A stretch of DNA of 64,000 bases from NCBI RefSeq assembly GCF_036402095.1, contig NZ_DASWTO010000055.1:9045-73044 (forward strand), read 5' to 3'. The position numbers and the translations under genes are program-made. The DNA comes from Brevundimonas sp. (GTDB taxonomy: Bacteria > Pseudomonadota > Alphaproteobacteria > Caulobacterales > Caulobacteraceae). Under the pieces are notes generated by a model, which saw only the letters and a list, made by a program, of their open reading frames with translations, was not told where the DNA came from and did not search any database. This document shows positions 40,275 to 55,956 of the stretch, piece after piece. Within the stretch, counting starts at the first letter, position 1. Each line of letters starts with the position of its first letter.

Positions 40275-41977
40275 AGCCAGGTCTCGCCCTCGAAGCGATC
40301 GAGGACCTGGGTCAGCCGGTTTCGGGCATGCTCAATGTCGCGCGGGTCCTGGCGGTCCAGAACGCTTTCGAACTCGCGGATCTGGTCGGCGATGAAGGCC
40401 CGCTGGTCCCCGAGGGACTCCTCGTAACAGCGGTTGGCGCGGCTCATGGCCGCCTTGTTGGCGTCGCTGTCGCGCGGGTGCTGTTTGAGAGCGGCCAGGG
40501 CCAGGCGCCGCTTTTCGAAATCGGCGTCAGCCATGACGGCCTCATCGGCGATGACGAGCTCGCGCTTTTCCCCGGTCTTCGGGATGTGGACATCGACTTC
40601 GAGCAGGCCGTTGATGTCGTAGCTGAAACGGATTTCGATCTGCACGCTGCCCAGCGGGCCGGCCGGGATCGGCACCTCCAACTGGCCGAGGAGGATGTTG
40701 TCCGCCACGTTACGGGACTCACCCTGGTAGACCGGGATATTGACCATGCGCTGATTGGCGGCGGCGTTCTGGTAGTACTGGACCCGGCTGGCGGGAATGA
40801 CGGTGTTGCGCTCGATGATCGGGGAAAAGGCGATCCCCAGCGAGCGACCGGCGGCATCATGCTCGCTCGCGCCGACCCCCAGGCTGTAGGGGCAGACGTC
40901 GGTCATGACGACTTCCTTCAACGCCACGTCGCGGGCCTTCAAACCGGCCTGCACGGCGGCGCCCACGGCGACGGCCTCATCCGGGTTAACGGCGTTGGCG
41001 GGGAAGCGGCCGAACATGCGCGTGATGGCGCGGCGCACGATCGGCATCCGCGTTGACCCTCCGACGAGGATGATCTCGGACAGGTCCTCGGCCCGCAGAT
41101 TGGCGTCGCGCAGAGACCGAAGAACCGGGTCGCGCAGGCGGGTCAGCAGCCCTTGGCAGAGGGCCTCGAAATCATCGGCGGTCACTTGCCGTTCGAGGGC
41201 CTTGTCCTTCCAGATGACCGTCATGGTCGCCGAAGGATGCTCGCTCAGGGCCCGGCGCGCGCGTTCGGCGGCGGCCCGGATCCGCTCGCGCAACAGGGGA
41301 TCGGACCGATCCTTCTCCGGGACATCTTTTCCGGCTGTCCGGCGGAATTCCTCCGTCAGAACGTCGTTGAAGTCCTCTCCGCCGAGACGGTTGTCACCGG
41401 TCGAGGCGCGGACTTCGATGATGCCCTCGAAGATTTCCAGCACCGAGACGTCGAACGTCCCGCCGCCGAGGTCGAAGACGAGGAACCGGCTCGCGTCGCC
41501 CAGCTCGTGGATGCCGTAGGCGAGGGCCGCGGCGGTGGGTTCGTTCAGCAGGCGCTCGACTTTCAGCCCGGCGAGCTCGCCCGCGCGTCGGGTCGCCTTG
41601 CGCTGCTTGTCGTTGAAATAGGCGGGGACGGTGATGACGGCCTCGGTGACCGGTTCTCCGAGAAACGCCTCCGCATCCGCCTTGAGCCGGGCGAGCACCA
41701 GAGCCGAAAGCTCTTCGGCCGTGAAGCTCCTCTTGCCCAGCTTCGTGATCCGGCTTGAGCCCATGTAGCGCTTGAAGGCGGTGGCGGTCAGCTCGGGATG
41801 GGTTGATTGCCGCTCGCGAGCGGACAGGCCGACCATCAGCTCGCCGGAGGTTTCATCGAAACTGACCGCCGATGGCGTGAGGACATGGCCGAGGCTGTTC
41901 GGGATCAGCTCCGCCTTGCCGTCGCGAAAAATGCCGACCGCGCTGTTGGTCGTGCCCAGATCGATGCCGATAATCAC
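40271..41977 (-). CDS. Hsp70 family chaperone, short HscC-like form
   Basis: IGIDLGTTNS, VITVPAYFNDKQR, LLNEPTAAALAYG and VFDLGGGTFDVS motifs. It is about 568 aa from the GTG at 41977 and lacks a DnaK-like C-terminal tail. Confidence 0.88.
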   Translation of the reverse strand: MIIGIDLGTTNSAVGIFRDGKAELIPNSLGHVLTPSAVSFDETSGELMVGLSARERQSTHPELTATAFKRYMGSSRITKLGKRSFTAEELSALVLARLKADAEAFLGEPVTEAVITVPAYFNDKQRKATRRAGELAGLKVERLLNEPTAAALAYGIHELGDASRFLVFDLGGGTFDVSVLEIFEGIIEVRASTGDNRLGGEDFNDVLTEEFRRTAGKDVPEKDRSDPLLRERIRAAAERARRALSEHPSATMTVIWKDKALERQVTADDFEALCQGLLTRLRDPVLRSLRDANLRAEDLSEIILVGGSTRMPIVRRAITRMFGRFPANAVNPDEAVAVGAAVQAGLKARDVALKEVVMTDVCPYSLGVGASEHDAAGRSLGIAFSPIIERNTVIPASRVQYYQNAAANQRMVNIPVYQGESRNVADNILLGQLEVPIPAGPLGSVQIEIRFSYDINGLLEVDVHIPKTGEKRELVIADEAVMADADFEKRRLALAALKQHPRDSDANKAAMSRANRCYEESLGDQRAFIADQIREFESVLDRQDPRDIEHARNRLTQVLDRFEGETWL

Positions 41978-42067
41978 GCGTATCCCCCGAACGCCACTCG
42001 CTTTATTCCCTAGCTTGATGGGAAGACGGGTGGAAGTGCGCTGGCGACACGCTCTGTCATTGGGCGT

Positions 42068-42547
42068 ATGACGCCGCCGATGGAACGACCCTTCTGGCAA
42101 ACCAAGCGCCTTGAGCAGATGACGCGCGAGGAATGGGAAAGCCTGTGCGACGGCTGTGGTCTGTGTTGTCTCGTACGGTTTGAGGACGAGGACACGGGCG
42201 AGGTCGTGCCGACCCGCGTACATTGCAGGCTGTTCGATCCCGTGCGCTGCACCTGCTCAGACTACGCCAACCGGCGGGAGCATGTGCCTGACTGCATCAA
42301 GCTGACCCCCTGGAACATCGAGGCGCTCGAGTGGATGCCGAAGTCCTGCGCCTACCGTCGCATCCACGAGGGACGGCCCCTGGCCGACTGGCATCCGCTG
42401 GTGTCGGGCGATCCGGAGAGCGTGCATGAAGCCGGCGTATCGGTACGCGGGCAGACGGTTTCGGAACTGGCGCTGCGGGACCCCGAGGATGCGCTCGATT
42501 TCGAGGCGCCGGAATGGGCGGCCGAACGGGGCGGAAAGCCGCGCTAA
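42068..42547 (+). CDS. ycgN: YcgN-family (UPF0260) cysteine-cluster protein
   Basis: [26 protein letters not shown]...CRLFD...CTCSDY pattern. Confidence 0.85.
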
Positions 42548-42984
42548 CCGAAGTCTCGTTGTTCATCCGCACAATGCCGGGATCGCAACCTCCGCCCGCG
42601 AACGTGCAACGGGAGCAGGTCGAACGGCGCTGGCGGGGGGGCATGACGATCATGTCGGGAGCCCATCCAGGTGGCGGAGCTGTTGCGGGTGATCGCTGCA
42701 CGGCTGGGACAGCGGGCGGCGGACCGGGACGGCGCCACGGCGCCTGACCGTGACGCTGTGCTTACCTTTCGGGAATCTATAGTCGGATTGGCGAGATGAA
42801 ATTTCGCAAAATCAGTCACTTAGCGATTTCTCGAGTCAATGTTTCATCCTGAGAACGCTGTGGGCGCATAATGTGGGAACGTCGGAGAGACAGGTGAGCG
42901 TCCCCATCGCGTAGGGGAGGGGCGCGCCTGGGGCCGACCTGAGCTGAGCCCTCCCCGCGCGCGGGCGCCACACCGGAGATCACC

Positions 42985-44145
42985 ATGCTGAACTGGCGGC
43001 GCCCCTTCGGGGGGCGGCGGAGCGTCGTTGCGCCCGAGATCAAGGATAGCCGGGTCGGCCCCCTGATCGCCCTGACCAGCGCAGGGCGTCCGCGGTGGAC
43101 GCCGAGAGACTACGCCAACCTGGCGAACGAGGGCTTTGCCCGGAACGCCGTGGCCTACCGCTGCGTGCGAATGGTCGCCGAAGCCGCGGCGTCGACGCCC
43201 CTGACCGTCTTCATCGACGGGGCCAGACGCGACGATCATCCGCTGGCGAGATTGCTGGCGCAGCCAAACCCCGAGCAGTCGGGCACGGAATGGCTGGAGG
43301 CGCTGTACGGCGGCCTGCAAACGGCGGGAAACGCCTATGCCGAGGCCGTGGGGGAAGACGCGCCCGCAGAGCTTTGGGCGCTGCGGCCGGATCGGGTGAA
43401 GGTGGTCCCGGGGCGCGCGGGCTGGGCCGAAGCCTATGAGTATTCCGTCGACGGCCGCTCTCTGCGGATCGGTCGGCAGGCGGACGGCTGGATGCCGGTG
43501 ATGCAGCTGAAGCTGTTTCATCCGACAGACGATCACTACGGCTTTTCACCGCTCGAGGCGGCGGCGTCGGCGATCGACGTGCACAACGCATCCAGCGCGT
43601 GGAACAAGGCGTTGCTGGACAATGCGGCGCGGCCCAGCGGGGCGTTGGTCTACGGCTCCAAGGATGGTGAGCGGCTGTCGGCTGAGCAGTTCGAGACCCT
43701 CCGGTCACAGATCAACGAGAGCCACGCCGGCACAATCAACGCGGGGCGTCCGATGCTTCTCGAAGGGGGGCTCGACTGGAAGCCGATGAGCTGGACACCC
43801 GCCGACATGGATTTCATCGCCGGGAAGCACGCGGCGGCGCGCGAGATCGCCCTGGCCTTTGGCGTCGCGCCCCAACTGCTCGGCATCCCCGGCGACGCGA
43901 CCTACTCGAACTACCGCGAAGCCAACGCAGCCTTCTGGCGCGGCACAGTCGCGCCGCTCGCGAGAAAGACGGCTGCCGCGCTGACCGGATGGCTGGGCGG
44001 TCGGTTCCCGGGAGCAAGGATCGAGGCCGATCTGGACGGCGTGCCGGCGCTGCAGCCGGAGCGGGACGCGCTGTGGGCACGCCTGGAGGCGGCCAGCTTT
44101 CTGACGAACGAAGAGCGGCGGCGCATGGCTGGAGTAGGATTGTGA
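42985..44145 (+). CDS. HK97-family portal protein (GTA g3)
   Basis: 386 aa. YRCVRMVAEAAASTPL..., HPLARLLAQPNP and GIPGDATYSNYREA motifs. RBS GGAGA at 42975-42979. Confidence 0.92.
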   Translation: MLNWRRPFGGRRSVVAPEIKDSRVGPLIALTSAGRPRWTPRDYANLANEGFARNAVAYRCVRMVAEAAASTPLTVFIDGARRDDHPLARLLAQPNPEQSGTEWLEALYGGLQTAGNAYAEAVGEDAPAELWALRPDRVKVVPGRAGWAEAYEYSVDGRSLRIGRQADGWMPVMQLKLFHPTDDHYGFSPLEAAASAIDVHNASSAWNKALLDNAARPSGALVYGSKDGERLSAEQFETLRSQINESHAGTINAGRPMLLEGGLDWKPMSWTPADMDFIAGKHAAAREIALAFGVAPQLLGIPGDATYSNYREANAAFWRGTVAPLARKTAAALTGWLGGRFPGARIEADLDGVPALQPERDALWARLEAASFLTNEERRRMAGVGL

Positions 44146-44366
44146 TGGATATGCGGAAGGTTCCGGTCGCGGTCATCGCGGCGCTGGCGGTGCAGACCGC
44201 CGGGGCCTTGGTGTGGGCGGGCGGGGCCGCGGCCCGGATCGCCACCCTGGAGGACAGGGTGAGCGAGCATCGTCAGGTGGCGGAGCGGCTTGCGCGGCTG
44301 GAAGAGCAGAGCAAGGCCACGAGGGCCGCCGTCGAGCGGATGGAGACGAGGATGGAGCGGGGCTAG
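44145..44366 (+). CDS. small GTA protein (g3.5-like), one TM plus coiled coil
   Basis: TGATG coupling to the portal gene. 73 aa with a hydrophobic N-terminus and a charged helical tail. The position matches RcGTA g3.5. Confidence 0.5.
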   Translation: MDMRKVPVAVIAALAVQTAGALVWAGGAAARIATLEDRVSEHRQVAERLARLEEQSKATRAAVERMETRMERG

Positions 44367-44821
44367 CGCGACGGCCTCGGACGCGGCTCACGGTCGCAGT
44401 CATCGGCGGTCAGCCGGAAGGTCCCATAGTTGCGGCCGATGTTGGCGCCAAGCGGATCGGACGACCGGCTGATGAGGTCGAGGGTCATGACGCCGCCGGG
44501 CGTGAGTGCGCCCTGCCCGGCGTTGCCCCAGCCGTCGACGAAAGTGAAACGCAGCGTTCCATCACGACCCATGCGGGCGGGCTCGTCCTCAACGTGAAGG
44601 ATTTCCTGACTGTCGGGCATGGCGTTGGTGAAACTGATCAAGGTCTGACCGTTGCGCGCTGCGACCCGGGCCCGCATCGAGAAGTCGCCCAGGGCAAAGG
44701 TCTCGCGACCGGTGTCCGCGACCAGTGGCTCGACCAGACAATAGTCACCCGGAGCGATCGGCGGAACCGAGGCGCAGCCCGCCAAGCCTGTGACAATCAT
44801 GGAGACAGGGATGAGGCGCAT
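44363..44821 (-). CDS. hypothetical lipoprotein inserted antisense in the GTA cluster
   Basis: Lipobox MRLIPVSMIVTGLAG|C. It is the only protein-like ORF in the 453-bp g3.5/g4 gap. It shares CTAG with the g3.5 stop and CATG with the g4 start. I saw no obvious SD. Confidence 0.5.
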   Translation of the reverse strand: MRLIPVSMIVTGLAGCASVPPIAPGDYCLVEPLVADTGRETFALGDFSMRARVAARNGQTLISFTNAMPDSQEILHVEDEPARMGRDGTLRFTFVDGWGNAGQGALTPGGVMTLDLISRSSDPLGANIGRNYGTFRLTADDCDREPRPRPSR

Positions 44822-45302
44822 GGCCCAACGCTATCATGATGTGGCGTCGACCGAAGGAGCAGAGGGCCTGCGAATCGCCGGGTACGCCTCGCTATGGGGC
44901 GTGGCCGATCTCAACGGCGATGTCATCGCGAGGGGCAGCTTCGCGGCCAGCCTGGCCGCGGGCGGCGCGCAAGGGGTTCGGATGCTGCACCAGCACGAGG
45001 GACGGTCGCCGGTCGGCGTTTGGGATGAAATGTTCGAGGACGACCGCGGCCTGCGGGTGCGAGGTCGGATCATGGACTGGTCAGCCGAGGCCCGGTTCGC
45101 GCAGGCGCTGTCGCGGGCCGGAGCGCTGGACGGGTTATCGATCGGGTTCCGGAGTCAGCGTGCGCGGCGCGAGGGACGGCTGCGGATTCTGGTGGAAGTC
45201 GAGCTTTGGGAGGTGTCGCTGGTGACCTTTCCCATGCTGCCCGCGGCGCGCTTCAAAGTGAGGCCCACGACAGCAGAGGAGCGAGTCGCTGCCCGCCAGT
45301 AG
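44820..45302 (+). CDS. HK97-family prohead protease (GTA g4)
   Basis: IAGYASLWGVADLNGDVIARGSF..., HQHE and LDGLSIGF...WEVSLVTFP motifs. Confidence 0.85.
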   Translation: MAQRYHDVASTEGAEGLRIAGYASLWGVADLNGDVIARGSFAASLAAGGAQGVRMLHQHEGRSPVGVWDEMFEDDRGLRVRGRIMDWSAEARFAQALSRAGALDGLSIGFRSQRARREGRLRILVEVELWEVSLVTFPMLPAARFKVRPTTAEERVAARQ

Positions 45303-45306
45303 CGGC

Positions 45307-45705
45307 TCAGGGGCTTTGGCGGCCCGAAAGTCGCGCGATCTCGCTCTGCGGAACGACGCGCGCGACCTGGACATTGCAGGTCCGCAGGAGGGTCGCGTGA
45401 CTGCGGATGTCCAGGTGAGCCGGGTCACCGATGCAGACATCGGCGTTTTCCGGGCCGACCGGGCGCAGGCCGATGCTCACCTCACCGGACGGACCGAGGC
45501 AGGCGGCTGGGCCGGTCAACAGGAGGGCTTCACCACTGTCGACCCTGACATATGCGCCGGCGCCGGGATCCAGCTTGATCAGCCGGGCCTCGCCCGCCGA
45601 GAAGCAACGGCGGGCCCCTGAGGGCGCACCCGTCGGTGCTTCGCTCCCCACGGGAGCGCAGCCTGTGACGATGAGCAATGTCGCGAGTGTTCCAACCAGG
45701 CGCAT
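45307..45705 (-). CDS. hypothetical Cys-rich lipoprotein inserted antisense in the GTA cluster
   Basis: Lipobox LLIVTG|C and a strong SD (AAGGAG) 7 nt upstream of the ATG. It ends 4 nt from the g4 stop (convergent). Confidence 0.6.
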   Translation of the reverse strand: MRLVGTLATLLIVTGCAPVGSEAPTGAPSGARRCFSAGEARLIKLDPGAGAYVRVDSGEALLLTGPAACLGPSGEVSIGLRPVGPENADVCIGDPAHLDIRSHATLLRTCNVQVARVVPQSEIARLSGRQSP

Positions 45706-45781
45706 AGCCGCACTCCTTCAGGTTGAGTAACCGTCGAACTGTCACACGCCGCCGCGGCCGGGTCAACAGGACTGGCCCCCG

Positions 45782-46564
45782 TCATGACGGGAAGGCGCGA
45801 GCCTTCTTCGTGCTCAACGCTTTCGCGGCATGCGTGAGAGCGGTCCTGGCGGCGGGCTTTCGGAGGATCGCGCCGAGCCAGATCGCAGCGACGACCACGA
45901 AGATGAAGGAGACCCGAAACAGGATCACGGCGAGAAGCCCGGCGACCGCCACGGCAAGCCAGATTCCGGTCAGGAGCGACTTGAGTTGAGGGGTCGAATG
46001 GGGATCGAGCGGCTCGCGTAACATCGCATCCAGATCCGAGGCCGGATCTTCCTGCAAACGCTCCAGCGGCCCACGGTTGACGAGGGGACGGGTCCCCGGG
46101 CTCCCCTCGACGGGCTCACGATCCTGATGCTGATGGAGCGCCAGCAGGGGGCTCGGTTTCATGAGGGCGGCGGGATCGAAGGCGATGGACTCGCCCTGAT
46201 CGTTGAGGGTGAAGACCTGCTCGAACGGAGTCTGGGTGAAGTCGATCGCCCGGGTGTCCTGGCCATAGGCGTCGCCAGGGAGGGCGAGGAGTCGGCCGTT
46301 CCTGAGCTCGACCTGGAAGGCGATCGGATCGGGCAGACCGCCGACCATGGCGTGGACCGTCCCGAAGCGACCGGTGGCCCGCTCATCCGACAGGGGGCGG
46401 CGCGAGCTGACGATGACTTCGCTGAACAGGCCGGAGCCTGTGTTGCGGCGGGTGCCCGGCAGGCTTTCCTCGAACTGGCCGGCGAGGTCCGGCGCGACGT
46501 GGCGCAGGTCGTGAGCCATGGCGGCCATGACCTCGCGTTCGAGCCTGGTGAATCGGGGGCTCAT
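45782..46564 (-). CDS. hypothetical membrane protein inserted antisense in the GTA cluster
   Basis: About 260 aa from the ATG at 46564. A soluble N-terminal domain of about 200 aa is followed by two TM helices (LLTGIWLAVAVAGLLAVILF and FIFVVVAAIWLGAIL). Third codon positions are consistently G/C. The start is uncertain. Confidence 0.55.
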   Translation of the reverse strand: MSPRFTRLEREVMAAMAHDLRHVAPDLAGQFEESLPGTRRNTGSGLFSEVIVSSRRPLSDERATGRFGTVHAMVGGLPDPIAFQVELRNGRLLALPGDAYGQDTRAIDFTQTPFEQVFTLNDQGESIAFDPAALMKPSPLLALHQHQDREPVEGSPGTRPLVNRGPLERLQEDPASDLDAMLREPLDPHSTPQLKSLLTGIWLAVAVAGLLAVILFRVSFIFVVVAAIWLGAILRKPAARTALTHAAKALSTKKARAFPS

Positions 46565-46685
46565 CCGGCGACCGCGCCGAGCGCTGCCAGGCGAACGCTG
46601 CGGTGGCGCAACGAGATCTTCTGCAGGGGGCGGCTCACGCCCCGATCCTAACCGCATCCCGCGGTTCCTGAAACCTGGAGACACC

Positions 46686-47936
46686 ATGAAAGAGACCAAG
46701 ACGGCCTCGGGCACCCCCGAGGCGCGCGCCGCCATGCACGAGATGATGGCGGCGTTCGAGGCATTCAAAGGGGCGAATGACGCCCGGTTGGATGAAATCG
46801 AGCGCAAGTCCACCGCAGACACGCTGCTGGAGGAGAAGGTGGCGCGGATCGACCAGGCCGTGAGCAGCGCCCAGGCGCGGCTGGATCGTGTCGTGAGCGA
46901 GGGGCGACGTCCCGGCATCGGCGCTGATGCGACGGGCCGGTTCGCCGTGTCGCGGTCCGACTCCACATTCCATGGGGAGGAGAAGGCCGCGTTCGACGGG
47001 TACCTGAAGTCCGGCGCCTCGTTCGGCCTCGAGCTGAAGGCGGGACTGTCGACCGCGTCGAACTCGGCCGGCTATGTCGTGCCCGAACAGACCGAGCGAG
47101 CCATCGAGCGGCGGCTGATGGCCGGCTCGCCGATGCGCGAGATCGCGAGCGTGCGGACGGTCGGATCCGGGATGTTCAGAAAGCCGGTTTCGACTGCCGG
47201 GCTTGCCGCGGGCTGGGTCGCGGAAACGGCGGCGCGGCCGGAGACGGACCCGGCGACCCTGGCCTTGCTGGAGTTCCCGTCTGCCGATCTGTACGCCAGT
47301 CCCGCGGCCACGCAGAGCCTGCTCGACGACGCTCTGATCGACCTGGACGAATGGCTGGCTTCCGAGGTCGAGGATGCGTTCGCCGCGCAGGAGACCAGCG
47401 CCTTCGTGACCGGCGACGGCGTCAACAAGCCCAAGGGATTCCTCAGCTACGACATCGTCGCGGAGGCGAGCCATGAGTGGGGCAAGATCGGCTATGTGGC
47501 CTCGGGCGCCGCAGGGGCGTTCGCAGCGTCCAGCCCCACGGATCGTCTGATCGATCTGATCTATGCGCCGAAGGCCCGGTACCGGCCGAACGGGCGCTTC
47601 GTGATGAACCGCAGGACCGTGTCGGCGGTGCGAAAATTCAAGGATAGCGACGGAGCGTATGTCTGGCAGCCGGCGCAACGGCCGGGAGAAACCGCCAGCC
47701 TGCTGGGGTACGCCGTCACCGAGATCGAGACCATGCCCGACGTGGGGGCGGACGCGGCCGCGATCGCCTTCGGCGATTTCCAGCGCGGTTACCTGATCGT
47801 AGACCGCGCCGGCGTCCGCGTGCTGCGGGATCCGTACTCCGCCAAGCCCTACGTGCTCTTCTACACGACCAAGCGGGTCGGCGGCGGCGTGCAGAATTTC
47901 GACGCCATCAAGGTTCTGAAGTTCAGCGCAACCTAG
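46686..47936 (+). CDS. HK97-family major capsid protein (GTA g5)
   Basis: An N-terminal delta-domain coiled coil and then the capsid body (GYVVPEQ, FVTGDGVNKPKGFL, YVWQP, RVGGGVQNFDAIK). RBS GGAGA lies upstream of the ATG at 46686. Confidence 0.92.
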   Translation: MKETKTASGTPEARAAMHEMMAAFEAFKGANDARLDEIERKSTADTLLEEKVARIDQAVSSAQARLDRVVSEGRRPGIGADATGRFAVSRSDSTFHGEEKAAFDGYLKSGASFGLELKAGLSTASNSAGYVVPEQTERAIERRLMAGSPMREIASVRTVGSGMFRKPVSTAGLAAGWVAETAARPETDPATLALLEFPSADLYASPAATQSLLDDALIDLDEWLASEVEDAFAAQETSAFVTGDGVNKPKGFLSYDIVAEASHEWGKIGYVASGAAGAFAASSPTDRLIDLIYAPKARYRPNGRFVMNRRTVSAVRKFKDSDGAYVWQPAQRPGETASLLGYAVTEIETMPDVGADAAAIAFGDFQRGYLIVDRAGVRVLRDPYSAKPYVLFYTTKRVGGGVQNFDAIKVLKFSAT

Positions 47937-48082
47937 TCGCCAGCAGGCATGGCCGGGTGGGGGGCGAGAGATCGTCGCTCACCCAGGCTCCCCAGGTGAA
48001 GCCGGCGACGGCAGGAGTGGGTCGAGCGGGTGCTCGAGTTCGTGCGTCCTCCCAAGCCCCCATTGAGCAAAGCGAGACACAG

Positions 48083-48349
48083 ATGACCGCACCGGTGTCC
48101 CTCACCGAGGCGAAGCTGTTCCTGCGCGTCGACCACGACGCCGAGGACGCGCTGATACAAACCCTCATCGACGCGGCCCAGGAAAGGGTCGGGCAAGATG
48201 TGGGTCTGGTGCTGACGTCGACCTCGCCCGCGCCCTTGCGGCTCGCGATCCTGATGCTGGCCCTGCGCGCCTATGAGCGTGGCGAAAGCGAGATGCCGAT
48301 CCAGCCTGTAGAAGCCTGGATCGCACCTTATCGCGTGGTGCGGTTGTGA
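48083..48349 (+). CDS. head-tail connector protein (GTA g6)
   Basis: VSLTEAKLFLRVDHDAEDALIQTLIDAA is typical of gp6-like connectors. Confidence 0.75.
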   Translation: MTAPVSLTEAKLFLRVDHDAEDALIQTLIDAAQERVGQDVGLVLTSTSPAPLRLAILMLALRAYERGESEMPIQPVEAWIAPYRVVRL

Positions 48350-48639
48350 GGGTGTTGGCGGGCCTGTTCGAGGGACTGGAGAGTCAGACGCCCTACGGCG
48401 GGCGGGCGGTCCACTGGGAGCCCTTGGGATCTGCGTGGCTGAAGGTGGGGCCGCGACGGAGGCGCGAGAAGAACGAGCCGGGCGGCGCACGGATCGTCGA
48501 GATCATGACAGCCGAAGCCCGGGCCGATGCGCGTCTGCTTCCGGAGCGGGTGCTGAGGTTCGGCGGCGCCGACTGGCGGATCCGGTCGTCCGAGACAGTG
48601 GGCGGGGCGGCCATCCTGAATCTGGAGCGGACGACATGA
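48346..48639 (+). CDS. head-tail adaptor / head closure protein (GTA g7)
   Basis: GTGA coupling to g6. Size, position and the ...WA.v.p... pattern are consistent with a phage head-tail joining protein. Confidence 0.7.
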   Translation: MRVLAGLFEGLESQTPYGGRAVHWEPLGSAWLKVGPRRRREKNEPGGARIVEIMTAEARADARLLPERVLRFGGADWRIRSSETVGGAAILNLERTT

Positions 48640-49040
48640 GCCATGAACTGGCCCTGCAGAAGGCGCTGATCGCGCACCTCGCGGAAGACGCCGGAATTCG
48701 CGCAGTGCTGGGCGATCCGGCCCGCATCTGGGATGCCGCGCCGGACAGGCCGACCTTTCCTCACCTGCTGGTCGGGCGATCGGAAAGCCGGCCGGTGAGA
48801 GCGGACGGAGGTGGTGTCGAACATGCGCTGACGCTGACCGCCGTTTCGCGCTTCCGCGGCACGGAAGAAGCCAAGGCCATCTTGGCGGTGCTGCGACTGA
48901 CGCTGACAGATGCGGTCCTGGCGGCGGACGGCGTGCGCACGGTCAGCCTCAGGGTCACTTTCGCCGACGTCTATCCGGCGTCCGACGGGCTGAGGACATT
49001 CGCGGTGCTGCGTGTGCGCGCCGTAACTGAGGAGGACTGA
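48636..49040 (+). CDS. DUF3168-like tail completion protein (GTA g8)
   Basis: ATGA coupling to g7. LQKALIAHLAEDAGIRAVLGDPARIWD...FPHLLVG pattern. Confidence 0.72.
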   Translation: MSHELALQKALIAHLAEDAGIRAVLGDPARIWDAAPDRPTFPHLLVGRSESRPVRADGGGVEHALTLTAVSRFRGTEEAKAILAVLRLTLTDAVLAADGVRTVSLRVTFADVYPASDGLRTFAVLRVRAVTEED

Positions 49041-49041
49041 A

Positions 49042-49452
49042 ATGGCGGCGCAACGCGGCAAGGACATCCTGTTGAAGATCGAGGGCGCGCCGGGGGTCTT
49101 CACCACCGTCGCAGGCCTTCGGGCCCGGACCCTGTCCCTGAACGCCCGGACAGTGGACGCAACCGATGGCGACAGCGCCGGCCGGTGGCGCGAACTGCTG
49201 GACGGCGCAGGCGTGAAGTCGGCTGCCGTGGCCGGTCAGGGCATCTTCCGCGACGCGGCTTCGGACGCGCTGATCCGCGAGACCTTCTTTGACCAGACGG
49301 CGCGGACCTGGCGGTTGATCGTGCCCGATTTTGGCTCACTCGAAGGCCCGTTCCTGGTCGCCGCCCTCGAGTACGCCGGCGAGCACGAGGGAGAGGCGAC
49401 GTTCGCGATCAGCCTGGCCAGCGCCGGTGAACTGACGTTCGGCGCCGCGTGA
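49042..49452 (+). CDS. major tail protein, TP901-1 family (GTA g9)
   Basis: GKDILLKIEG...FTTVAGLR...L..N and a C-terminal ATF.ISL.SAGELTF. RBS GAGGAGG at 49029-49035. Confidence 0.85.
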   Translation: MAAQRGKDILLKIEGAPGVFTTVAGLRARTLSLNARTVDATDGDSAGRWRELLDGAGVKSAAVAGQGIFRDAASDALIRETFFDQTARTWRLIVPDFGSLEGPFLVAALEYAGEHEGEATFAISLASAGELTFGAA

Positions 49453-49745
49453 TGCACGCCAATGGTGCGAGAGGCGAGGTGGTCGCGATGTTGGCAGGGG
49501 CCGAGCGGCGACTTTGCCTGACCTTGGGCGCTCTGGCGGAGATGGAGACGGCGCTGGGTTGCGACGGGCTGCTCTCGCTCGCAGAACGGATGCGGGCGCT
49601 GTCGGCCAAGGATCTGACAGCGATCCTTGCAGCCCTGCTGAGAGGTGGCGGCGAGGACGCTCTGGCCAGCGAATTGGCCTACGCTCTGGTCGACCCCTGC
49701 GAGGCGGCTGAGGCGGTGGCCCACGCATTCGCCGCCGCGGCATGA
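49449..49745 (+). CDS. GTA tail assembly chaperone-like protein (g10)
   Basis: GE..A.LAG.ERRLCLTLGALAE.E is a pattern conserved in GTA g10. It is coupled at both ends. Confidence 0.72.
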   Translation: MMHANGARGEVVAMLAGAERRLCLTLGALAEMETALGCDGLLSLAERMRALSAKDLTAILAALLRGGGEDALASELAYALVDPCEAAEAVAHAFAAAA

Positions 49746-49918
49746 GGACGCCCTGGGCGTCAATGATGCGCGCGGCCGCGCATCTGGGCGTGGGTCCCGA
49801 GGCTTTCTGGCGGCTGTCGCTGAAGGAATGGCGAATGCTGACCGAGACCTCCTCGGCGCATGCGCCGCTGGGACGAAGCGAGTTCGAGCGAATGGCGGAG
49901 GCGTGGCCCGATGACTGA
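49742..49918 (+). CDS. small phage tail assembly chaperone-like protein (GTA g10.1), 58 aa
   Basis: Not in the supplied ORF track because it is under 60 aa. Translated by hand: MRTPWASMMRAAAHLGVGPEAFWRLSLKEWRMLTETSSAHAPLGRSEFERMAEAWPDD. ATGA overlap with g10 and an 8-nt overlap with g11. The P..FW.LSL.EW pattern matches the rcc01693-type family. Confidence 0.65.
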   Translation: MRTPWASMMRAAAHLGVGPEAFWRLSLKEWRMLTETSSAHAPLGRSEFERMAEAWPDD

Positions 49919-50438
49919 CGAGCCTGGAACAGGGGGCGTGGATTCCATGCCGCGGCGGGTGGCCGAGGCCGCGGCGGCGCTGGACGGGCTCCGGGAGCCT
50001 GCCGAGCGAGCGGCGGCGTCGATCGAGAGCGCCTTTGACCGGGCGGGCTCAAGCCTGACGCGATCCCTGGCTCGGGCCGCCGCCGACGGCGAAGTCTCGC
50101 TGGCGGAGCTGGCGCGCGCCGTGCTTGCCGCCGTCAACGCGGCAGCCGGCGGCCGGGCTGGAGGTTTGTCGGGCGCCATCGCCCAGGCGGCGGGTTCGAT
50201 CTTCGCCGGCGCCCGGGCGGAGGGCGGGCCGGTTGCGGCAGGCGGAGCGTACCTTGTCGGCGAGCGCGGACCGGAACTGTTTCGGCCAGGCAGTTCCGGT
50301 GTGATTGACCCGCCGGCCGCGGGGAGCGTGACGGTCAACGTCCTCATCGAGGGCGGGGCGGAGGCCTTGCTGAGATCGGAGGCGCAGATCGCACAGGCGC
50401 TGGCGCGGGCGGTCTCCCTCGGCGCACGTCGGCTCTAG
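49911..50438 (+). CDS. short tape measure protein (GTA g11)
   Basis: Ala/Gly-rich helical protein ending ...YLVGERGPELFRPG..G.I. The GERGPE motif is typical of tape measure C-termini. 175 aa from the ATG at 49911. Confidence 0.65.
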   Translation: MTDEPGTGGVDSMPRRVAEAAAALDGLREPAERAAASIESAFDRAGSSLTRSLARAAADGEVSLAELARAVLAAVNAAAGGRAGGLSGAIAQAAGSIFAGARAEGGPVAAGGAYLVGERGPELFRPGSSGVIDPPAAGSVTVNVLIEGGAEALLRSEAQIAQALARAVSLGARRL

Positions 50439-50495
50439 TCGGAGCGGCGAAGTCGCGCGCCCCGGCGCCGGGCTCAACATCCAGGAGATATTGTC

Positions 50496-51122
50496 ATGGC
50501 GTTTCACGAAGTGAGGCTGCCTGCCCGCCTGGCGTTCGGATCCACCGGCGGCGTCGAGCGGCGCACCGAGATCGTGACGCTGGGCTCGGGCTTCGAGCGG
50601 CGATCGACACCGTGGGCGCAAGGACGAAGGCGCTACCTGATCGGTGCGAACCTGAAGTCTCTCGACGACATGGCGACCTTGACCGCGTTCTTCGAGGCGC
50701 GTTGCGGACGGCTGTACGGGTTCCGGTTCAGGGATTTCGTGGACTTCAGATCCTGCGAGCCGAGCGGAACAATCACGCCTGTGGACCAGCCCCTGGGCCA
50801 TGGGGACGGGATGCGGAGGACGTTCGAGCTGAGTAAGCGATACGGCGAGGAAGACGCTGTGACGCGGCGAATCCACAAGCCCGTCGAAGGCACCGTCAGG
50901 CTCGCGGTCGACGGCGCTGAACTGGAAGGGCCGGCTTTCGAACTCGACCTGGCGACGGGCGTAGTCACTCTCGCCGTTGCGCCTGCCGCCGGTGCGGCGG
51001 TCACCGCCGGATACGAGTTCGACGTCCCAGTCCGCTTCGATGCCGACAGGGTGGACGTGACGCTTGAGAGTTTCGCGGCTGGCCGGATGGCTGCTGTGCC
51101 CCTGATCGAGGTGAGGGTCTGA
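50496..51122 (+). CDS. DUF2460 distal tail protein (GTA g12)
   Basis: MAFHEVRLP..LAFGS.GG.ERRTEIV.L.SG.E.R...W...RR.Y is the TIGR02217-type N-terminus. RBS AGGAGA. Confidence 0.85.
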   Translation: MAFHEVRLPARLAFGSTGGVERRTEIVTLGSGFERRSTPWAQGRRRYLIGANLKSLDDMATLTAFFEARCGRLYGFRFRDFVDFRSCEPSGTITPVDQPLGHGDGMRRTFELSKRYGEEDAVTRRIHKPVEGTVRLAVDGAELEGPAFELDLATGVVTLAVAPAAGAAVTAGYEFDVPVRFDADRVDVTLESFAAGRMAAVPLIEVRV

Positions 51123-51125
51123 AGC

Positions 51126-51779
51126 ATGCGCGACATACCGGTCGAACTGGCGACCCGCGTCGAGAGCGGGGCGTCCACCCTGTGCCATGCCTGGTTGCTG
51201 AGGAGGGCCGACGGCGTCGAGGCGGGTTTCACCGATCACGACCGAGATCTGAACGTCGGCGGCGTCCTTTGCCTGGCCGCCAGCGGATGGATGATCGGGG
51301 CGACGGAAAGCTCAGTCGGCCTCGCAGCGGGTTCGGCGGCCGTGGCCGGTGTCCTGGACGATGTTTCGATCCGGGAATCCGACATTGCGGCGGGCTTGTA
51401 CGATCGTGCGGAAGTCGCGCTGTGGCGAGTCGATTGGCGCCGTCCCGACCTGAAGGTTCGGCTGTGGCTCGCGGGGTTGGCGCGGATTCGCCGCGAGGGC
51501 GAGAGCTTCACCGCCGAGCTGGAAGGGCCGATGGCGTCCCTGGAACGCGTGGTTGGCCGAACCTACGGCCGTGACTGCGACGCCCAGTTCGGGGATGAAC
51601 GATGCAAGGTTGATCTGGGGGCCTTCCCCGGCGCGCAGTGTGACAAACGATGGGGCACCTGCGTCGGCGAGTTTGGAAACGGCGGCAACTTCCAGGGCTT
51701 TCCGGACATCCCGGGTGACGACTTCATTACGGCCGCACCGGTGCAGGGCGGACGCAATGACGGACGGAGCCGACGATGA
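51126..51779 (+). CDS. DUF2163 baseplate hub protein (GTA g13), apparently shortened
   Basis: TLCHAWLLRRADG...GFTDHDRDL and the C-terminal CDKRWGTC..F.N..NFQGFPDIPGDDF. It is 217 aa, against my recollection of about 290-300 aa for typical homologs. Confidence 0.78.
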   Translation: MRDIPVELATRVESGASTLCHAWLLRRADGVEAGFTDHDRDLNVGGVLCLAASGWMIGATESSVGLAAGSAAVAGVLDDVSIRESDIAAGLYDRAEVALWRVDWRRPDLKVRLWLAGLARIRREGESFTAELEGPMASLERVVGRTYGRDCDAQFGDERCKVDLGAFPGAQCDKRWGTCVGEFGNGGNFQGFPDIPGDDFITAAPVQGGRNDGRSRR

Positions 51780-52240
51780 GGGCGCGCTCGGTGGCTGCGG
51801 CGCGCGACTGGCTTGGTACGCCCTACCGGCATCAGGCCAGTTTGCAGGGTCAGGGCGCGGATTGTCTCGGCCTGGTGCGTGGCGTGTGGCGGGAGCTGTT
51901 CGGGGTCGAGCCGCAAGCCGCGCCGCCTTACCAGCCGGACTGGGCTGAGGTCGGAGGCGAGGAAACGCTGCTGCAGGCCGCGCGGCGCTGGATGACGGAG
52001 ATTCCCGTCGAGAGCGCATGCGCCGGCGACGTACTGCTGTTTCGCATGGCGTCCGGCAGTCCGGTCAAGCACTGCGCGATCATGAGCGAGGGTTCGATGG
52101 CTGCCCAATCCCAACCGCGCATGATCCACGCCTATTGGGGCCGGTCCGTGGTCGAGAGTTGGCTCGGATCATGGTGGCGGCGACGGGCGGTGGCGGCATT
52201 CGCCTGGCCGTCCCGCAAGATTGAGCGAAAGGTCGGCTGA
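51776..52240 (+). CDS. NlpC/P60 family cell-wall peptidase (GTA g14)
   Basis: WLGTPYRHQ....G.GADCLGLVRGVW includes the catalytic Cys motif, and there is a later HCAIM. ATGA coupling. Confidence 0.85.
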   Translation: MRARSVAAARDWLGTPYRHQASLQGQGADCLGLVRGVWRELFGVEPQAAPPYQPDWAEVGGEETLLQAARRWMTEIPVESACAGDVLLFRMASGSPVKHCAIMSEGSMAAQSQPRMIHAYWGRSVVESWLGSWWRRRAVAAFAWPSRKIERKVG

Positions 52241-55200
52241 TGGCGCAGGTTGTTCTGGGCGGCGTCGGCGGGGCGATCGGCGGAGGGGTCGGACGCGCCT
52301 TGGGCGCGACCATCGGCGGCATGCTCGACCAGGCGCTTGTCGCCGGACTGCAACCCGCGCGCCAGAAAGGCCCGCGGCTGGGTTCACTGGCTTTGCAGGG
52401 CACGGCGGAAGGCGCGCCGCTGGCTTGCGTGTTCGGGCGTGCGCGAGTCGCCGGGCAGGTGATCTGGGCCGCGAGCTTTCTGGAAGGACGCAACACCACG
52501 CCGGCAGGCAAGGGCGGCCCCCGTACTGTCGAATACGCCTACTCTCTGAGCTTCGCCGTCGCCTTGTGCGAAGGGCCCATCGACGGAATCGGCCGCATAT
52601 GGGCCGACGGGCAGCCCCTGGACCTCGCGGGCGTCACGATGCGACTGCATCACGGAACAGAAAGCCAGACGCCCGACCCCCTGATCGAGGCCATCGAAGC
52701 GGACGCCCCGGCCTATCGTGGCACGGCCTATGTCGTATTCGAGGATCTGCCGTTGGGGCCCTATGGCAACCGGTTGCCGCAGCTGGCTTTCGAGGTCTTC
52801 CGGCGCCCACGCGGTTCAGATCCACGACTGGAGGAACGGCTGGAAGGCGTCTGCCTCATCCCGGGCGCAGGAGAGTTCGTCCTTGCGACTGAGGTGGTGC
52901 TGCGGCGGGAGGGACTGACGCGAACCACGCCCGAGAATGTCCATGCCGGCGACGGACGGACCGATCTCGCCGTGTCCCTCGATCAGCTACAGGCCCAGGT
53001 TCCGAATCTGAAACGGGTGAGTCTGGTCATCGGGTGGTTCGGTGATGATCTCAGGGCCGGCCAGTGCAGGATTCGCCCGGGCGTGGAACGTGCTGACAAG
53101 CCGACCGAGCCCATGGCCTGGACTGTCGCCGGCCTGGCGCGCGCCGACGCCCACCTGATCTCACAGAGCGGAGGCGGACCGGCCTACGGCGGCACGCCTT
53201 CGGACCAGAGCGTGCGGCAAGCGGTCGCCGAACTGAAGGCGCGTGGTCTCGAGGTGACGCTCTATCCATTCGTGTTCATGGATGTGCCGCCGGGGAACAG
53301 CCTGCCAGATCCTTACGGAGGTCCGGAGCAGGCGCCCTATCCTTGGCGGGGGCGCGTCTGCGGCGGGGACGGACCCGCAGCGGATGCGGATATCGCGGCG
53401 ATCTTCGGCGCAGCGGACGACTGGGGATTGCGGCGACTGGCGCTGCATTATGCCGCGCTTGCGGCTGAAACCGGCGCGGACGGGTTGTTGATCGGCTCCG
53501 AGATGCGCGGCTTGGGCTGGACCCGCGACGCTGGGGGAGGATTCCCGGCGGTTGCGGCGTTTCGAGCCCTGGCGGCGGAATGCAGGGTGGTGGTCGGTCC
53601 AGGCGTAAAGCTCTCGTACGCCGCCGACTGGTCGGAATACGCCGGATGGCGCGACGGTGGCGACGTGGTGTTTCACCTCGACCCGCTGTGGGCGGATCCG
53701 AACATCGATTATGTCGGCGTGGACTGGTATCCGCCGCTCGGGGACTGGCGATCAGGTGCGGGCGGCCTGGACGGGCAAGCGTTTACAGGCCCGGATGATC
53801 CGGCCGGTCTGGCGGCGCAGGTCGCCGGCGGTGAAGGCTTCGACTGGTATTATGCCTCGGCGGCGGACCGGGCTGCCCAGGCGCGTACGCCGATCGTCGA
53901 CACGGCTTACGGAGAGGACTGGGTTTTCCGGGTCAAGGACCTGGCGGGCTGGTGGTCGCACGCACATCATGACCGCCCGGGTGGGGTTCGGACGCTTGAG
54001 CCCACGGCCTGGACGCCCGGCATGAAGCCGATCCGGCTGACGGAGTTCGGATGCCCCGCGGTCGACCGAGGCGCGAACGCGCCGAACCTTTTCCAGGATT
54101 CCAAGAGCGCCGAGAGCGGATTGCCACCATTCTCAACGGGGAGTCGGGACGACCGCATGCAGCGTCGGGCGCTTGAAGCCGTGCTGGGCCATTTCGCCGA
54201 ACCCGCCAACAATCCTGTTTCACCGATATACGGCGGTCCCATGCTCGAGAGCGCGGACGCCTGGTGTTGGGATGCGCGCCCGTGGCCGGCGTTTCCCGCC
54301 AGATCAGAAGTCTGGAGCGATGCGTCAGGGTGGCGCACGGGGCATTGGCTGAATGGTCGGTTGAGCGGTGAAACCCGTGACCTGATCCGTGAAATCCTGA
54401 AGCGCGGCGGCCTGTCCGAGACAGATTTCGAGATCGGGACGCCCCCGGGAGAGGTGCAGGGCTATGTCATTGACCGGCCGATGCGCACGCGTGACGCACT
54501 GGAGCCCTTGCTGGCGGGCCTCGGCATGGTCGCGGCGGAACGGGGAGGTCAGGTTGCCATCATCGGGAATGAATCGGCCGTACGTGTTCTGACTTCCCAG
54601 GCCCTGGCCCTTCCGGCGAGCGGCGCGAGCGTGCGGGCCGATCGGCAGCTCGAGGCCCGGCCCGGAGCGGCTCGCGTGAGGTTCATAGACGGGGCGTCGG
54701 ACTATCAGACCGGGGCGGCGATCGTCCGGACAGCGGGAGAGGGTGGCGGGGTCGACATTGACCTCCCAGCTGTCTGCCCGCGCGCTCTCGCCCAGGCTAC
54801 GGCGGCACGACTGCTCGAAACAGGCCGCGAAGATCGGCTCGTCGTCGCCTTGGGGCCCCTGGAGGCTTTGTCGCTGGAGCCCGGTGACGCTGTTCTCGTC
54901 GACGGGCATGGAGAATGGCGAACGGTCCGGGTGGACATGGACGAGATCCCCTCCGCCGTCCTCGAAAGGATGTCGAGGCTGCGGGTCGGTGAAGACGAAG
55001 GAACGCCGTCTTCAGGAGATGCCGCGACAACGATGGGCCCGCCGTTTCTTCGGATGATCGATCCGCCTCCGCTGCCTGGCGCCGAAGACGATCGACGACC
55101 GATCGCGGTGGTCGCCGCCGAGCCGTGGCGGCCGATGCGAGTGTTCGCCGGACCTGATGCGACGAGCCTGACTGTGCGAGGCGATGTGGAGGATCCCGTG

Positions 55201-55956
55201 ACCGTCGGCATCCTGGCTTCGCCGCTGGCTTCTGGGGTTCGGCACCGCTGGGACGAGCGAAACGCCCTGTACATCCGGGTCGAAGGACGAGCGCCGGAAA
55301 GTCTGTCGATCCCCGCGGTGCTGGCCGGCGGAAACACGCTGGCCGTGGAGACGGGGTCGGGCTGGGAGATCGTCCAGTACCGCGCCGCCGAACTCGTCGG
55401 CGCCGACCTCTGGCGTCTGACGGGCCTGTTGCGGGGACAGCAGGGCACAGAAGAGGCGACCGCAGCCGGTGCGGAGGCCGGGGCGATCGTCGTGTTCCTG
55501 GCGGCCACAATGCCGAGGATGGAATCGCCGTCGGCCGAACTCGGATTGCCTCTCGTCTGGCGAGCGGGGCCAGCCGGGGCGCCGGCCGGCGGTCCAGGCG
55601 CCAGCGAAACTGTCTTCACTCCGGCCGGGCGACATGACCGGCCGTGGAGCCCCGCCCATCTGCGTTGTGCTGTCCGCGGGGACGGCGGCTTCGATCTGAG
55701 CTGGCTGGGGCGCAGGCGCATTGACGGCGATCGCTGGGATGGAGAGCCTGCGACTTCCGATCCCTCGCGATACCGGATTGGCGTCCTCAGGGCCGGAGCC
55801 CTGGTTCGCGTGTTTGAAGTCGACACCGAGGCCGCGACTTACGCGGGAACCGACGCCGCCGAGGACTTTCCCGGCGGACTTGCCGGCGCGGAGGTGGTCG
55901 TGGCTCAATGGGGCGATCGTTACGGCTGGGGCGCCGAAGCCCGCGTCAGACCATGA
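52240..55956 (+). CDS. GTA host-specificity / tail fibre-baseplate protein (g15, TIM-barrel-like plus phage-tail domains)
   Basis: 1238 aa. The N-terminus MAQVVLGGVGGAIGG...GPRL..L.....EGAP...VFGR.RV.GQ.IWA is typical of g15 homologs. TGATG coupling to g14. Confidence 0.9.
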   Translation: MAQVVLGGVGGAIGGGVGRALGATIGGMLDQALVAGLQPARQKGPRLGSLALQGTAEGAPLACVFGRARVAGQVIWAASFLEGRNTTPAGKGGPRTVEYAYSLSFAVALCEGPIDGIGRIWADGQPLDLAGVTMRLHHGTESQTPDPLIEAIEADAPAYRGTAYVVFEDLPLGPYGNRLPQLAFEVFRRPRGSDPRLEERLEGVCLIPGAGEFVLATEVVLRREGLTRTTPENVHAGDGRTDLAVSLDQLQAQVPNLKRVSLVIGWFGDDLRAGQCRIRPGVERADKPTEPMAWTVAGLARADAHLISQSGGGPAYGGTPSDQSVRQAVAELKARGLEVTLYPFVFMDVPPGNSLPDPYGGPEQAPYPWRGRVCGGDGPAADADIAAIFGAADDWGLRRLALHYAALAAETGADGLLIGSEMRGLGWTRDAGGGFPAVAAFRALAAECRVVVGPGVKLSYAADWSEYAGWRDGGDVVFHLDPLWADPNIDYVGVDWYPPLGDWRSGAGGLDGQAFTGPDDPAGLAAQVAGGEGFDWYYASAADRAAQARTPIVDTAYGEDWVFRVKDLAGWWSHAHHDRPGGVRTLEPTAWTPGMKPIRLTEFGCPAVDRGANAPNLFQDSKSAESGLPPFSTGSRDDRMQRRALEAVLGHFAEPANNPVSPIYGGPMLESADAWCWDARPWPAFPARSEVWSDASGWRTGHWLNGRLSGETRDLIREILKRGGLSETDFEIGTPPGEVQGYVIDRPMRTRDALEPLLAGLGMVAAERGGQVAIIGNESAVRVLTSQALALPASGASVRADRQLEARPGAARVRFIDGASDYQTGAAIVRTAGEGGGVDIDLPAVCPRALAQATAARLLETGREDRLVVALGPLEALSLEPGDAVLVDGHGEWRTVRVDMDEIPSAVLERMSRLRVGEDEGTPSSGDAATTMGPPFLRMIDPPPLPGAEDDRRPIAVVAAEPWRPMRVFAGPDATSLTVRGDVEDPVTVGILASPLASGVRHRWDERNALYIRVEGRAPESLSIPAVLAGGNTLAVETGSGWEIVQYRAAELVGADLWRLTGLLRGQQGTEEATAAGAEAGAIVVFLAATMPRMESPSAELGLPLVWRAGPAGAPAGGPGASETVFTPAGRHDRPWSPAHLRCAVRGDGGFDLSWLGRRRIDGDRWDGEPATSDPSRYRIGVLRAGALVRVFEVDTEAATYAGTDAAEDFPGGLAGAEVVVAQWGDRYGWGAEARVRP

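Follow-up and report, generated by a model that had tools for sequence, protein, structure and literature searches.

The 64,000-nucleotide stretch of Brevundimonas sp. DNA analysed here, referred to below as the window (contig NZ_DASWTO010000055.1, positions 9,045 to 73,044 of the forward strand), has an overall G+C content of 68.8% and carries on its plus strand a gene transfer agent (GTA) cluster of the RcGTA type. Pfam matches follow one another from portal to g15 along positions 42985-55956, and the genes are arranged in the order portal, g3.5, prohead protease, capsid, connector, tail completion, tail tube, two chaperones, tape measure, DUF2460, hub, NlpC/P60 and g15, which matches the RcGTA-type head-tail cluster (g3-g15). 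Inside the head module, between g3.5 and the prohead protease gene g4, lies a minus-strand gene with a lipoprotein-type signal peptide, here named LpA, which is a genuine protein-coding gene and a rare, lineage-restricted insertion. The features found at this junction are:

42985..44145, plus strand: g3, portal (Pfam Phage_portal, E = 1e-85)
44145..44366, plus strand: g3.5-like small membrane/coiled-coil protein of 73 aa, kept in all related loci (PHROG matches at 1e-6)
44363..44821, minus strand: LpA, lipoprotein-type gene of 152 aa, antisense to the GTA operon between g3.5 and g4
44363..44366: CTAG, overlapping stop codons of g3.5 (plus) and LpA (minus)
44774..44821, minus strand: LpA signal peptide and lipobox, MRLIPVSMIVTGLAG followed by C, read from the sequence (Cys16 codon at 44774-44776)
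44801..44804, plus strand: GGAG, ribosome-binding site of g4, embedded in the signal-peptide codons of LpA
44811..45302 (alternative start 44820), plus strand: g4, prohead protease (Pfam Peptidase_S78, E = 1.7e-25)
44819..44822: CATG, head-to-head ATGs of LpA (minus) and of the second in-frame ATG of g4 (plus)
44828..44836, minus strand: TGATAGCGT, extended -10-like element and putative leaderless promoter, inside the first codons of g4

The lipobox of LpA, LAGC, satisfies the consensus [LVI][ASTVI][GAS]C, and the protein is probably exported and lipid-anchored at Cys16. A first-pass annotation of the window had singled out this 152-codon open reading frame (ORF) with its lipobox as the only protein-like frame in the g3.5/g4 gap, and this is confirmed: the G+C content at its three codon positions (GC1/2/3 = 0.65/0.54/0.80) is of the coding type, and no other frame in the gap displays such a profile. 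A plus-strand gene in the gap, in the form of the ORF at 44213-44839 that spans it, was considered and rejected on its non-coding profile (0.82/0.59/0.62). The proposed sharing of CTAG with the g3.5 stop and of CATG with an in-frame ATG of g4 is likewise seen in the sequence. The described placement between g3.5 and the prohead protease is correct as to the flanking genes, but an overlap limited to CATG would not hold if g4 starts at the ATG at 44811. This start codon, located 6 nt after the GGAG, is the more likely one compared with 44820, and its use would extend the divergent overlap of LpA and g4 to 11 nt instead of 2.

A search of 5.8 billion proteins returned three relatives of LpA, with 83, 63 and 46% identity over the aligned part. 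Two metagenome contigs, L001 and L002 (the latter identical to L049), carry LpA orthologs that are placed antisense between homologs of g3.5 and of the protease, as in the window; these same-context orthologs show 83% and about 52% identity to the window copy. Both had been shortened by the gene caller, and their full ORFs are 152 aa long with lipoboxes (LVGC in L001 and LSAC in L002); a further copy, in L045, has LSGC. The overlapping stop codons in CTAG are also found in L001 (646-649) and L002 (678-681), as are the head-to-head ATGs in CATG. Between the window and L001 the gene displays 67 differences, distributed as 12/16/39 over codon positions 1/2/3. The ratio of nonsynonymous to synonymous substitution rates (dN/dS) is 0.22 against L001 and 0.42-0.45 in the pairs with L002, for which dS is near saturation, compared with 0.11-0.16 for the portal, g3.5 and the N-terminus of the protease; LpA is therefore under purifying selection, weaker than that acting on the structural genes. 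No paralog of LpA was found elsewhere in the window.

High-GC genomes yield many long spurious ORFs (117 ORFs of at least 40 aa overlap positions 38000-52000 of the window) and LpA has no known domain matches, which would fit a chance frame in a high-GC spacer or a decayed remnant. Against this stand the coding GC3 profile, a frame that stays open in every ortholog, even at 46% identity, dN/dS values below 0.5, the third-position substitutions, a protein family of 113 cluster representatives and a confident structural model (see below). A spurious ORF is effectively refuted by the family profile, the dN/dS values, the model and the codon-position differences, and its probability is close to nil.

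The composition of LpA is that of its host. Its overall G+C content (0.66), GC3 (0.80) and codon adaptation index-like value (0.68) are all inside the range of the cluster genes, and its preference for C over G at third positions is the same as that of other minus-strand genes, such as the one encoding the Hsp70-like protein. T-ending codons had been taken as a hint of foreign origin; this signal is marginal, with a third-position T frequency of 0.16, compared with 0.07-0.09 in the immediate neighbours and 0.14 in the capsid gene and g15, the range elsewhere in the cluster being 0.07-0.14. Recent acquisition of LpA as foreign DNA was therefore rejected on its host-like composition.

The distribution of LpA was scrutinized by a scan with the protease, limited to one genome per species, which returned 41 loci. 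Their titles are mostly Brevundimonas, the rest being metagenome-assembled genomes of broader Caulobacteraceae, Caulobacterales or Alphaproteobacteria assignment; identity to the window is 72-87% for the protease and up to 93% for the portal. Portal, g3.5 and protease are all present in 40 of the loci; in these, the spacing between the g3.5 stop and the first aligned residue of the protease is -10 to 101 nt, versus 453 nt in the window. The two genes abut or overlap in all 40, and in many relatives the first in-frame start codon of g4 overlaps the g3.5 stop as ATGA or GTGA. A homolog of LpA was found in none of the 41 related loci. The contiguity of g3.5 and g4 in the 40 relatives identifies LpA as a rare insertion, restricted to certain lineages, and bears out the earlier statement that the gene is outside the canonical layout. 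The comparison with a phage moron is borne out on its central point, since LpA is an extra gene between genes that are neighbours in relatives; the deviant composition is missing.

The portal tree puts the window together with L004, L028 and L015, and L042 into a neighbouring group; the portals of L028, L042 and L015 are about 93% identical to that of the window, and all of these loci are without LpA. L002 is located in another clade together with L013, L022, L016 and L008 (96% identity), which are also without LpA, and g3.5 shows the same clade split as the portal. The three GTA-embedded LpA copies, those of the window, L001 and L002, cluster in the LpA tree (bootstrap 67/100), and a block just upstream of the LpA ATG, CTGATAGCGT, is invariant among them. 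Recent transfer of a cassette between the clades was rejected, since, in the comparison of the window with L002, LpA has a dS (about 1.0) that does not fall below the values of the flanks (0.8-2.0). Because the copies cluster, share CTAG, CATG and CTGATAGCGT, and have a dS that is not below that of the flanks, we infer a single old insertion event, after which recombination or loss would have redistributed the presence and absence of the gene. The insert is not flanked by direct or inverted repeats or by target duplications and therefore bears no signature of a transposon or integron.

The first 20-45 residues of g4, before the conserved L.I.GYASLWG, are very variable in length and sequence among Brevundimonas (window 44811-44880, L004-L044), and MA[QR]RY at the g4 N-terminus is common only to the three LpA-bearing loci.

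The first-pass annotation had described every other junction of the cluster as tight, which does not hold. The g4 stop (45302) and the g5 start (46687) are 1,384 nt apart, and this interval contains two more minus-strand genes with coding GC profiles:

45307..45705, minus strand: LpB, second lipoprotein-like gene, 132 aa, MRLVGTLATLLIVTG followed by C, its stop 4 nt from the g4 stop
45782..46561, minus strand: TMC, 259 aa, with a C-terminal membrane segment
46687..47936, plus strand: g5, major capsid protein (Pfam Phage_capsid, E = 6e-88), its start placed by frame plot and ATG

The argument from the uniqueness of the g3.5/g4 junction consequently fails, because g4/g5 has antisense genes as well. 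Taken as a whole, the earlier description stands for the ORF, the overlaps and the flanks, and falls for the tight junctions and the foreign composition. The junctions other than these two are overlaps, such as the TGATG of portal/g3.5, or gaps of at most 57 nt (57 nt at g11/g12, 20 nt at g5/g6).

Orthologs of LpB were found in the same place in 5 related loci, and tblastn matches to TMC in 29, of which 25 extend over most of its length, all on the minus strand between g4 and g5. LpB has no match in Pfam, NCBIfam, PHROGs or PADLOC, and TMC has none there at curated cut-offs, with only NCBIfam matches far below cut-off. Paralogy of LpA and LpB was rejected, as their BLASTP likeness is confined to the signal peptide (E = 0.28). 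The capsid gene was also identified in 34 of the related loci; g4 and g5 are separated there by 15 to 3,085 nt, and by roughly 115 nt or less in only about six. Elsewhere this junction carries a secreted M20/M28 peptidase (L027, L044), an XRE regulator with a membrane protein (L021), or one of several secreted or membrane proteins without Pfam match, and most of this cargo is encoded on the minus strand. The g4/g5 junction is a genus-wide hotspot for antisense genes in Brevundimonas.

Extra sequence of 108-464 nt is also present between portal and g3.5 in eight related loci, with about 460 nt in L008 and L022 and 108-211 nt in L012, L013, L017, L023, L025 and L036; in L013 this stretch includes a run of N.

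The expression signals of LpA and g4 appear to be reciprocally embedded. The element TGATAGCGT fits TGnTAnnnT and is located so that its last T is 7 nt before the A of the LpA ATG, the spacing that would be expected for a leaderless mRNA starting at that A. It is contained in a block that is invariant in the three GTA-embedded copies, and the pattern TGNTANNNT-N6-ATG has a single match in the 64-kb window, at LpA, with 0.16 expected by chance. The LpA ATG is not preceded by a Shine-Dalgarno (SD) sequence, unlike the homologs outside GTAs in L003 and L045, which are preceded by ordinary SD leaders. On the other strand, the ribosome-binding site of g4 lies in LpA codons, and its equivalent in L002 is AAGGAGG, 6 nt 5' of the g4 ATG. 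Each gene would thus carry the expression signals of the other. An Rfam scan of positions 42000-48000 gave no match. In Caulobacter crescentus, anti-termination by GafZ lets RNA polymerase bypass terminators inside the GTA cluster (PMC11150451), and anti-termination of this type offers a reason why antisense units are tolerated.

Such an arrangement could also be regulatory: convergent LpA transcription, or base pairing between the g4 ribosome-binding site on the polycistronic mRNA and the 5' end of LpA, would gate the protease and the downstream head genes and so suppress leaky particle assembly in non-induced cells. The g4 SD (44801-44804) and start codons are indeed within the first 21 nt of the complement of the LpA coding strand, the ancestral translational coupling of g3.5 and g4 was replaced by the antisense arrangement, and the same design is seen in three diverged copies. 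The amino-acid sequence is nevertheless under purifying selection and protein motifs are conserved family-wide, so that the protein is selected and not only the act of transcription; moreover, relatives regulate the same cluster without LpA, and gating could be a side effect rather than a function. We consider gating possible but secondary, and distinctly unlikely as the explanation of the gene.

The family to which LpA belongs was delineated by a profile search against 1.84 billion cluster representatives (50% clustering), which returned 113 representatives, most of them of 140-160 aa and 81 at E <= 1e-10. Sampled N-termini carry signal peptides, and about 11 of 73 members of single-domain size have a lipobox-like N-terminus. 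Among 41 aligned members, all have C142 and 78% have C28, and the two cysteines may form a disulfide; the family is further characterized by the motifs MPDSxQxL, FxFxDGWGNxGxG and NIGRNYG. The Pfam, NCBIfam, PHROG and PADLOC models gave no match to LpA, and a Pfam scan of the 41 family members up to E = 10, a setting at which the HMMER filters drop most matches above about 0.1, gave scattered single matches only. A profile search of the PDB sequences found nothing. The AlphaFold2 (AF2) model, built from 41 sequences, has a mean confidence (pLDDT) of 92.5 and is all-beta, with eight main strands, a helix and a short C-terminal helix; Foldseek comparison of this model with PDB and BFVD gave nothing below E = 0.05.

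A domain association was found in the family. In at least eight representatives above the Pfam cut-off, and in three just below it, an LprI domain (PF07007) stands N-terminal to the LpA-like domain:

P0060, P0064, P0076, P0080, P0091, P0098, P0102, P0106: signal peptide - LprI - LpA-like fusions
P0062, P0081, P0087: LprI-LpA-like fusions just below the Pfam cut-off

The LprI protein of Mycobacterium tuberculosis, a lysozyme inhibitor, has the layout LprI plus MliC (PMC7933661). Known lysozyme inhibitors are usually small periplasmic or lipid-anchored eight-stranded barrels, and in ACP a disulfide joins the first and last strands (PMC5507604). An Ivy-family gene is located two genes away from one LpA homolog. 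The fusions, the possible likeness to these barrels and the Ivy neighbour are leads towards a binder of peptidoglycan hydrolases, not proof of one.

Outside the three GTA-embedded copies, every family member looked up has an ordinary chromosomal or island setting. The 46% homolog in L003 is found between RsmE-like and cyclopropane-fatty-acid-synthase-like genes, other homologs adjoin genes for an ABC ATPase, a BamB-like protein, fumarase, an amidase or DUF1993, and some, on contigs from lake metagenomes, belong to islands of low GC3 that encode small secreted proteins. No relative was found in IMG/VR, and the family is therefore cellular rather than specific to GTAs or phages. The suggestion that LpA acts like the exclusion lipoproteins Llp and Cor is unsupported, given that there is no Pfam, PHROG, PADLOC or significant BFVD fold match and no IMG/VR relative.

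On four lake-metagenome contigs (L052, L057, L060 and L063), a distant LpA-like domain forms the C-terminal half of secreted proteins of about 237 aa. These are encoded in tandem paralog arrays, in islands with a GC3 of 0.45-0.5 in otherwise high-GC3 contigs, and the islands also hold other small secreted and membrane proteins.

A protective role linked to the GTA itself has to be weighed at this point. LpA, as a lipoprotein of the outer membrane or periplasm, would then shield kin that do not produce particles, or producers ahead of lysis. It could stop GTAs or phages from adsorbing, or counteract a cell-wall hydrolase that is carried by the GTA or associated with lysis, and the tie of this function to the GTA would be why the gene is kept in the cluster. 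An exported protein of lipoprotein type does sit in the head module, antisense genes with signal peptides or membrane segments recur genus-wide at g4/g5, which hints at a functional tie, and the junction design is kept across deep divergence. The cluster moreover encodes a hub protein and a peptidase:

51776-52240, within the GTA cluster: tail NlpC/P60 peptidase (g14)

The LprI fusions and the Ivy-family neighbour also point to the biology of peptidoglycan hydrolases. LpA is, however, absent from 40 of 40 related GTA clusters that look intact from portal to capsid, which counts against immunity because a GTA-essential partner would be expected to be widespread. The other family members looked up are outside GTAs, there is no relative in viral collections, and LpA shows no homology to known exclusion proteins, Llp and Cor included; the closest precedent, CCNA_02873 of C. 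crescentus, acts independently of the GTA (PMC9632790). We regard GTA-linked immunity or exclusion as unlikely, with a small but real share of the probability.

The explanation that we prefer, and hold to be probable though far from certain, is that LpA is a self-expressed, moron-like cargo gene for the cell envelope, perhaps leaderless. LpA inserted antisense between g3.5 and g4 and broke the ancestral stop/start coupling, and the cassette is now squeezed so far that no intergenic bases are left, with stop codons overlapping on one side and the LpA ATG overlapping the 5' end of g4 on the other. The gene would have its own expression at times when the GTA operon is off, and its product would serve the cell envelope rather than particle assembly. 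The leading guess is that this product binds or inhibits a peptidoglycan hydrolase in the periplasm, because the recurrent LprI-LpA-like fusions mirror LprI-MliC. Once the GTA operon is switched on, RNA polymerase in its anti-terminated form would transcribe across the cassette, where it would collide with the transcription of LpA.

Several points weigh against an envelope cargo gene of this kind. The composition of LpA is not foreign, unlike that of classic morons, and neither a sigma-70 promoter nor an intrinsic terminator turned up near the gene in a scan for consensus sequences. The leaderless-promoter interpretation was reached post hoc and depends on 9 nt that also encode g4 residues; transcription may instead enter LpA by read-through from LpB and TMC, since LpA is downstream of both on the same strand. 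The recurrence of exported or membrane proteins among the antisense genes of the head module could mean a GTA-linked role after all. As to the hydrolase, the best Foldseek matches in PDB are generic beta-barrels (nitrobindin, lipocalins, the fHbp barrel) with template modelling (TM) scores of 0.38-0.41 and E >= 0.2, and MliC, PliC and ACP are not among the 50 matches listed of 683 at E <= 10. An hhalign comparison of LpA with E. coli MliC (sequence checked as 2F09) gave a probability of 0.5%, no match to PF09864 (MliC) was obtained in the Pfam scan of the 41 family members up to E = 10, and the MliC motifs SxSGAxY and YxxxTKG are absent from LpA and from the family consensus. The LprI domain alone is without proven inhibitor activity (PMC7933661).

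A more elaborate scheme would combine protection and gating into a switch between producers and non-producers. The leaderless antisense transcript would both yield a protective lipoprotein and mask the ribosome-binding site of the protease, and anti-terminated polymerase would override both; recombination at the GTA locus would keep Brevundimonas clades polymorphic for the presence of the gene, with the g4/g5 antisense genes that have export or membrane signals forming a variable 'immunity island'. The lipoprotein of non-induced cells could then inactivate a cell-wall hydrolase that the GTA carries or that is associated with lysis, or keep the GTA from entering. We hold this scheme to be very improbable.

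GTAs do not package or propagate their own genes, and they are therefore usually seen as streamlined, vertically inherited operons. The locus described here indicates that GTA head modules can acquire and retain unrelated antisense genes, and it adds g3.5/g4 as a rare insertion site beside the g4/g5 hotspot of Brevundimonas. At this site the insertion swapped a stop/start overlap for what appears to be a reciprocal embedding of expression signals, and the locus offers a compact natural system in which anti-terminated GTA transcription can be followed alongside antisense genes. The family of exported proteins, uncharacterised and often fused to LprI, provides candidate binders of cell-wall hydrolases. 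If the cargo does act on GTA uptake or lysis, this would bear on how producers and recipients are separated; present evidence favours an ordinary passenger gene. The embedding of signals, the patchy distribution over clades and the LprI-associated domain family are worth following.

No terminase genes g1/g2 are located directly upstream of the portal, and none were found among the subset of window ORFs scanned by Pfam; the GTA cluster in the window is separated from its packaging genes. The region 5' of the portal (36499-42984) contains a minus-strand run followed by a single plus-strand gene:

36499-38583, minus strand: ABC-F-type ATPase
38388-40274, minus strand: 628-aa protein with an N-terminal J domain
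40271-42223, minus strand: Hsp70-like protein
42068-42547, plus strand: CxxCxxCC gene, followed by a gap of 437 nt before the portal

Third-position bias in the window differs by strand. The plus-strand portal, g3.5, protease, capsid and g6 genes have more G than C (0.45 and 0.38, respectively, in the portal), g9, g12, g13 and g15 on the same strand are without this preference, and the minus-strand LpA, LpB, TMC and Hsp70-like genes all favour C (about 0.50 versus 0.30). The g15 protein is 1,238 aa long and comprises GTA_TIM and Rcc01698_C domains. Farther away, and unrelated to LpA, are a 1,192-aa RTX/serralysin-like protein (Peptidase_M10, HemolysinCabind repeats) at 22070-25648 and two DUF2336 paralogs on opposite strands, at 27828-29045 (plus) and 29701-30807 (minus).

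Among known systems, the phage morons of Hendrix and Juhala, such as bor and lom of lambda and gp15 of HK97, often encode a membrane protein or lipoprotein, benefit the host or exclude other phages, and are thought to be expressed independently of the late operon. Classic examples have their own promoter and terminator in flanking spacers, are often of deviant composition and spread with the phage. LpA resembles them as an extra gene between genes that are adjacent in relatives (40 of 40 loci), and differs by its lack of spacers, by its host-like composition and by its carrier, since a GTA does not spread its own genes as a phage does. The Llp lipoprotein of T5 and Cor of phi80 and N15 mediate superinfection exclusion. 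They share with LpA that they are small lipoproteins from a phage-derived element; LpA is about twice as large, displays no sequence or fold similarity to them, and has chromosomal rather than viral relatives.

The lysozyme inhibitors MliC/PliC and ACP, together with LprI, are small beta proteins of 100-150 aa with eight strands, located in the periplasm or lipid-anchored, which LpA may resemble; the LprI-LpA-like fusions parallel the LprI-MliC layout. LpA differs from MliC in lacking the Pfam MliC match and the MliC motifs, and by its hhalign result.

The nearest precedent is an antisense gene in the GTA locus of C. crescentus, CCNA_02873, whose deletion alone explains the zeocin hypersensitivity of a full GTA-locus deletion (Gozzi et al. 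2022, PMC9632790). Like LpA, it is antisense inside a Caulobacteraceae GTA head module; by locus-tag order it adjoins the major capsid gene, its function serves the host, and the cluster is still produced around it. It differs from LpA in belonging to another protein family, in being cytoplasmic and annotated for bleomycin resistance, and in its position at or near g4/g5 instead of g3.5/g4. LpA has no bleomycin-resistance or glyoxalase homology in Pfam; its product carries export signals and belongs to an unknown family, its junctions are of zero intergenic length, and it is found in few lineages. Given the CCNA_02873 precedent, antisense cargo in Caulobacteraceae GTA head modules is a kind already known, and what is new in LpA is the protein family, the rarer junction and the unusually compact fit.

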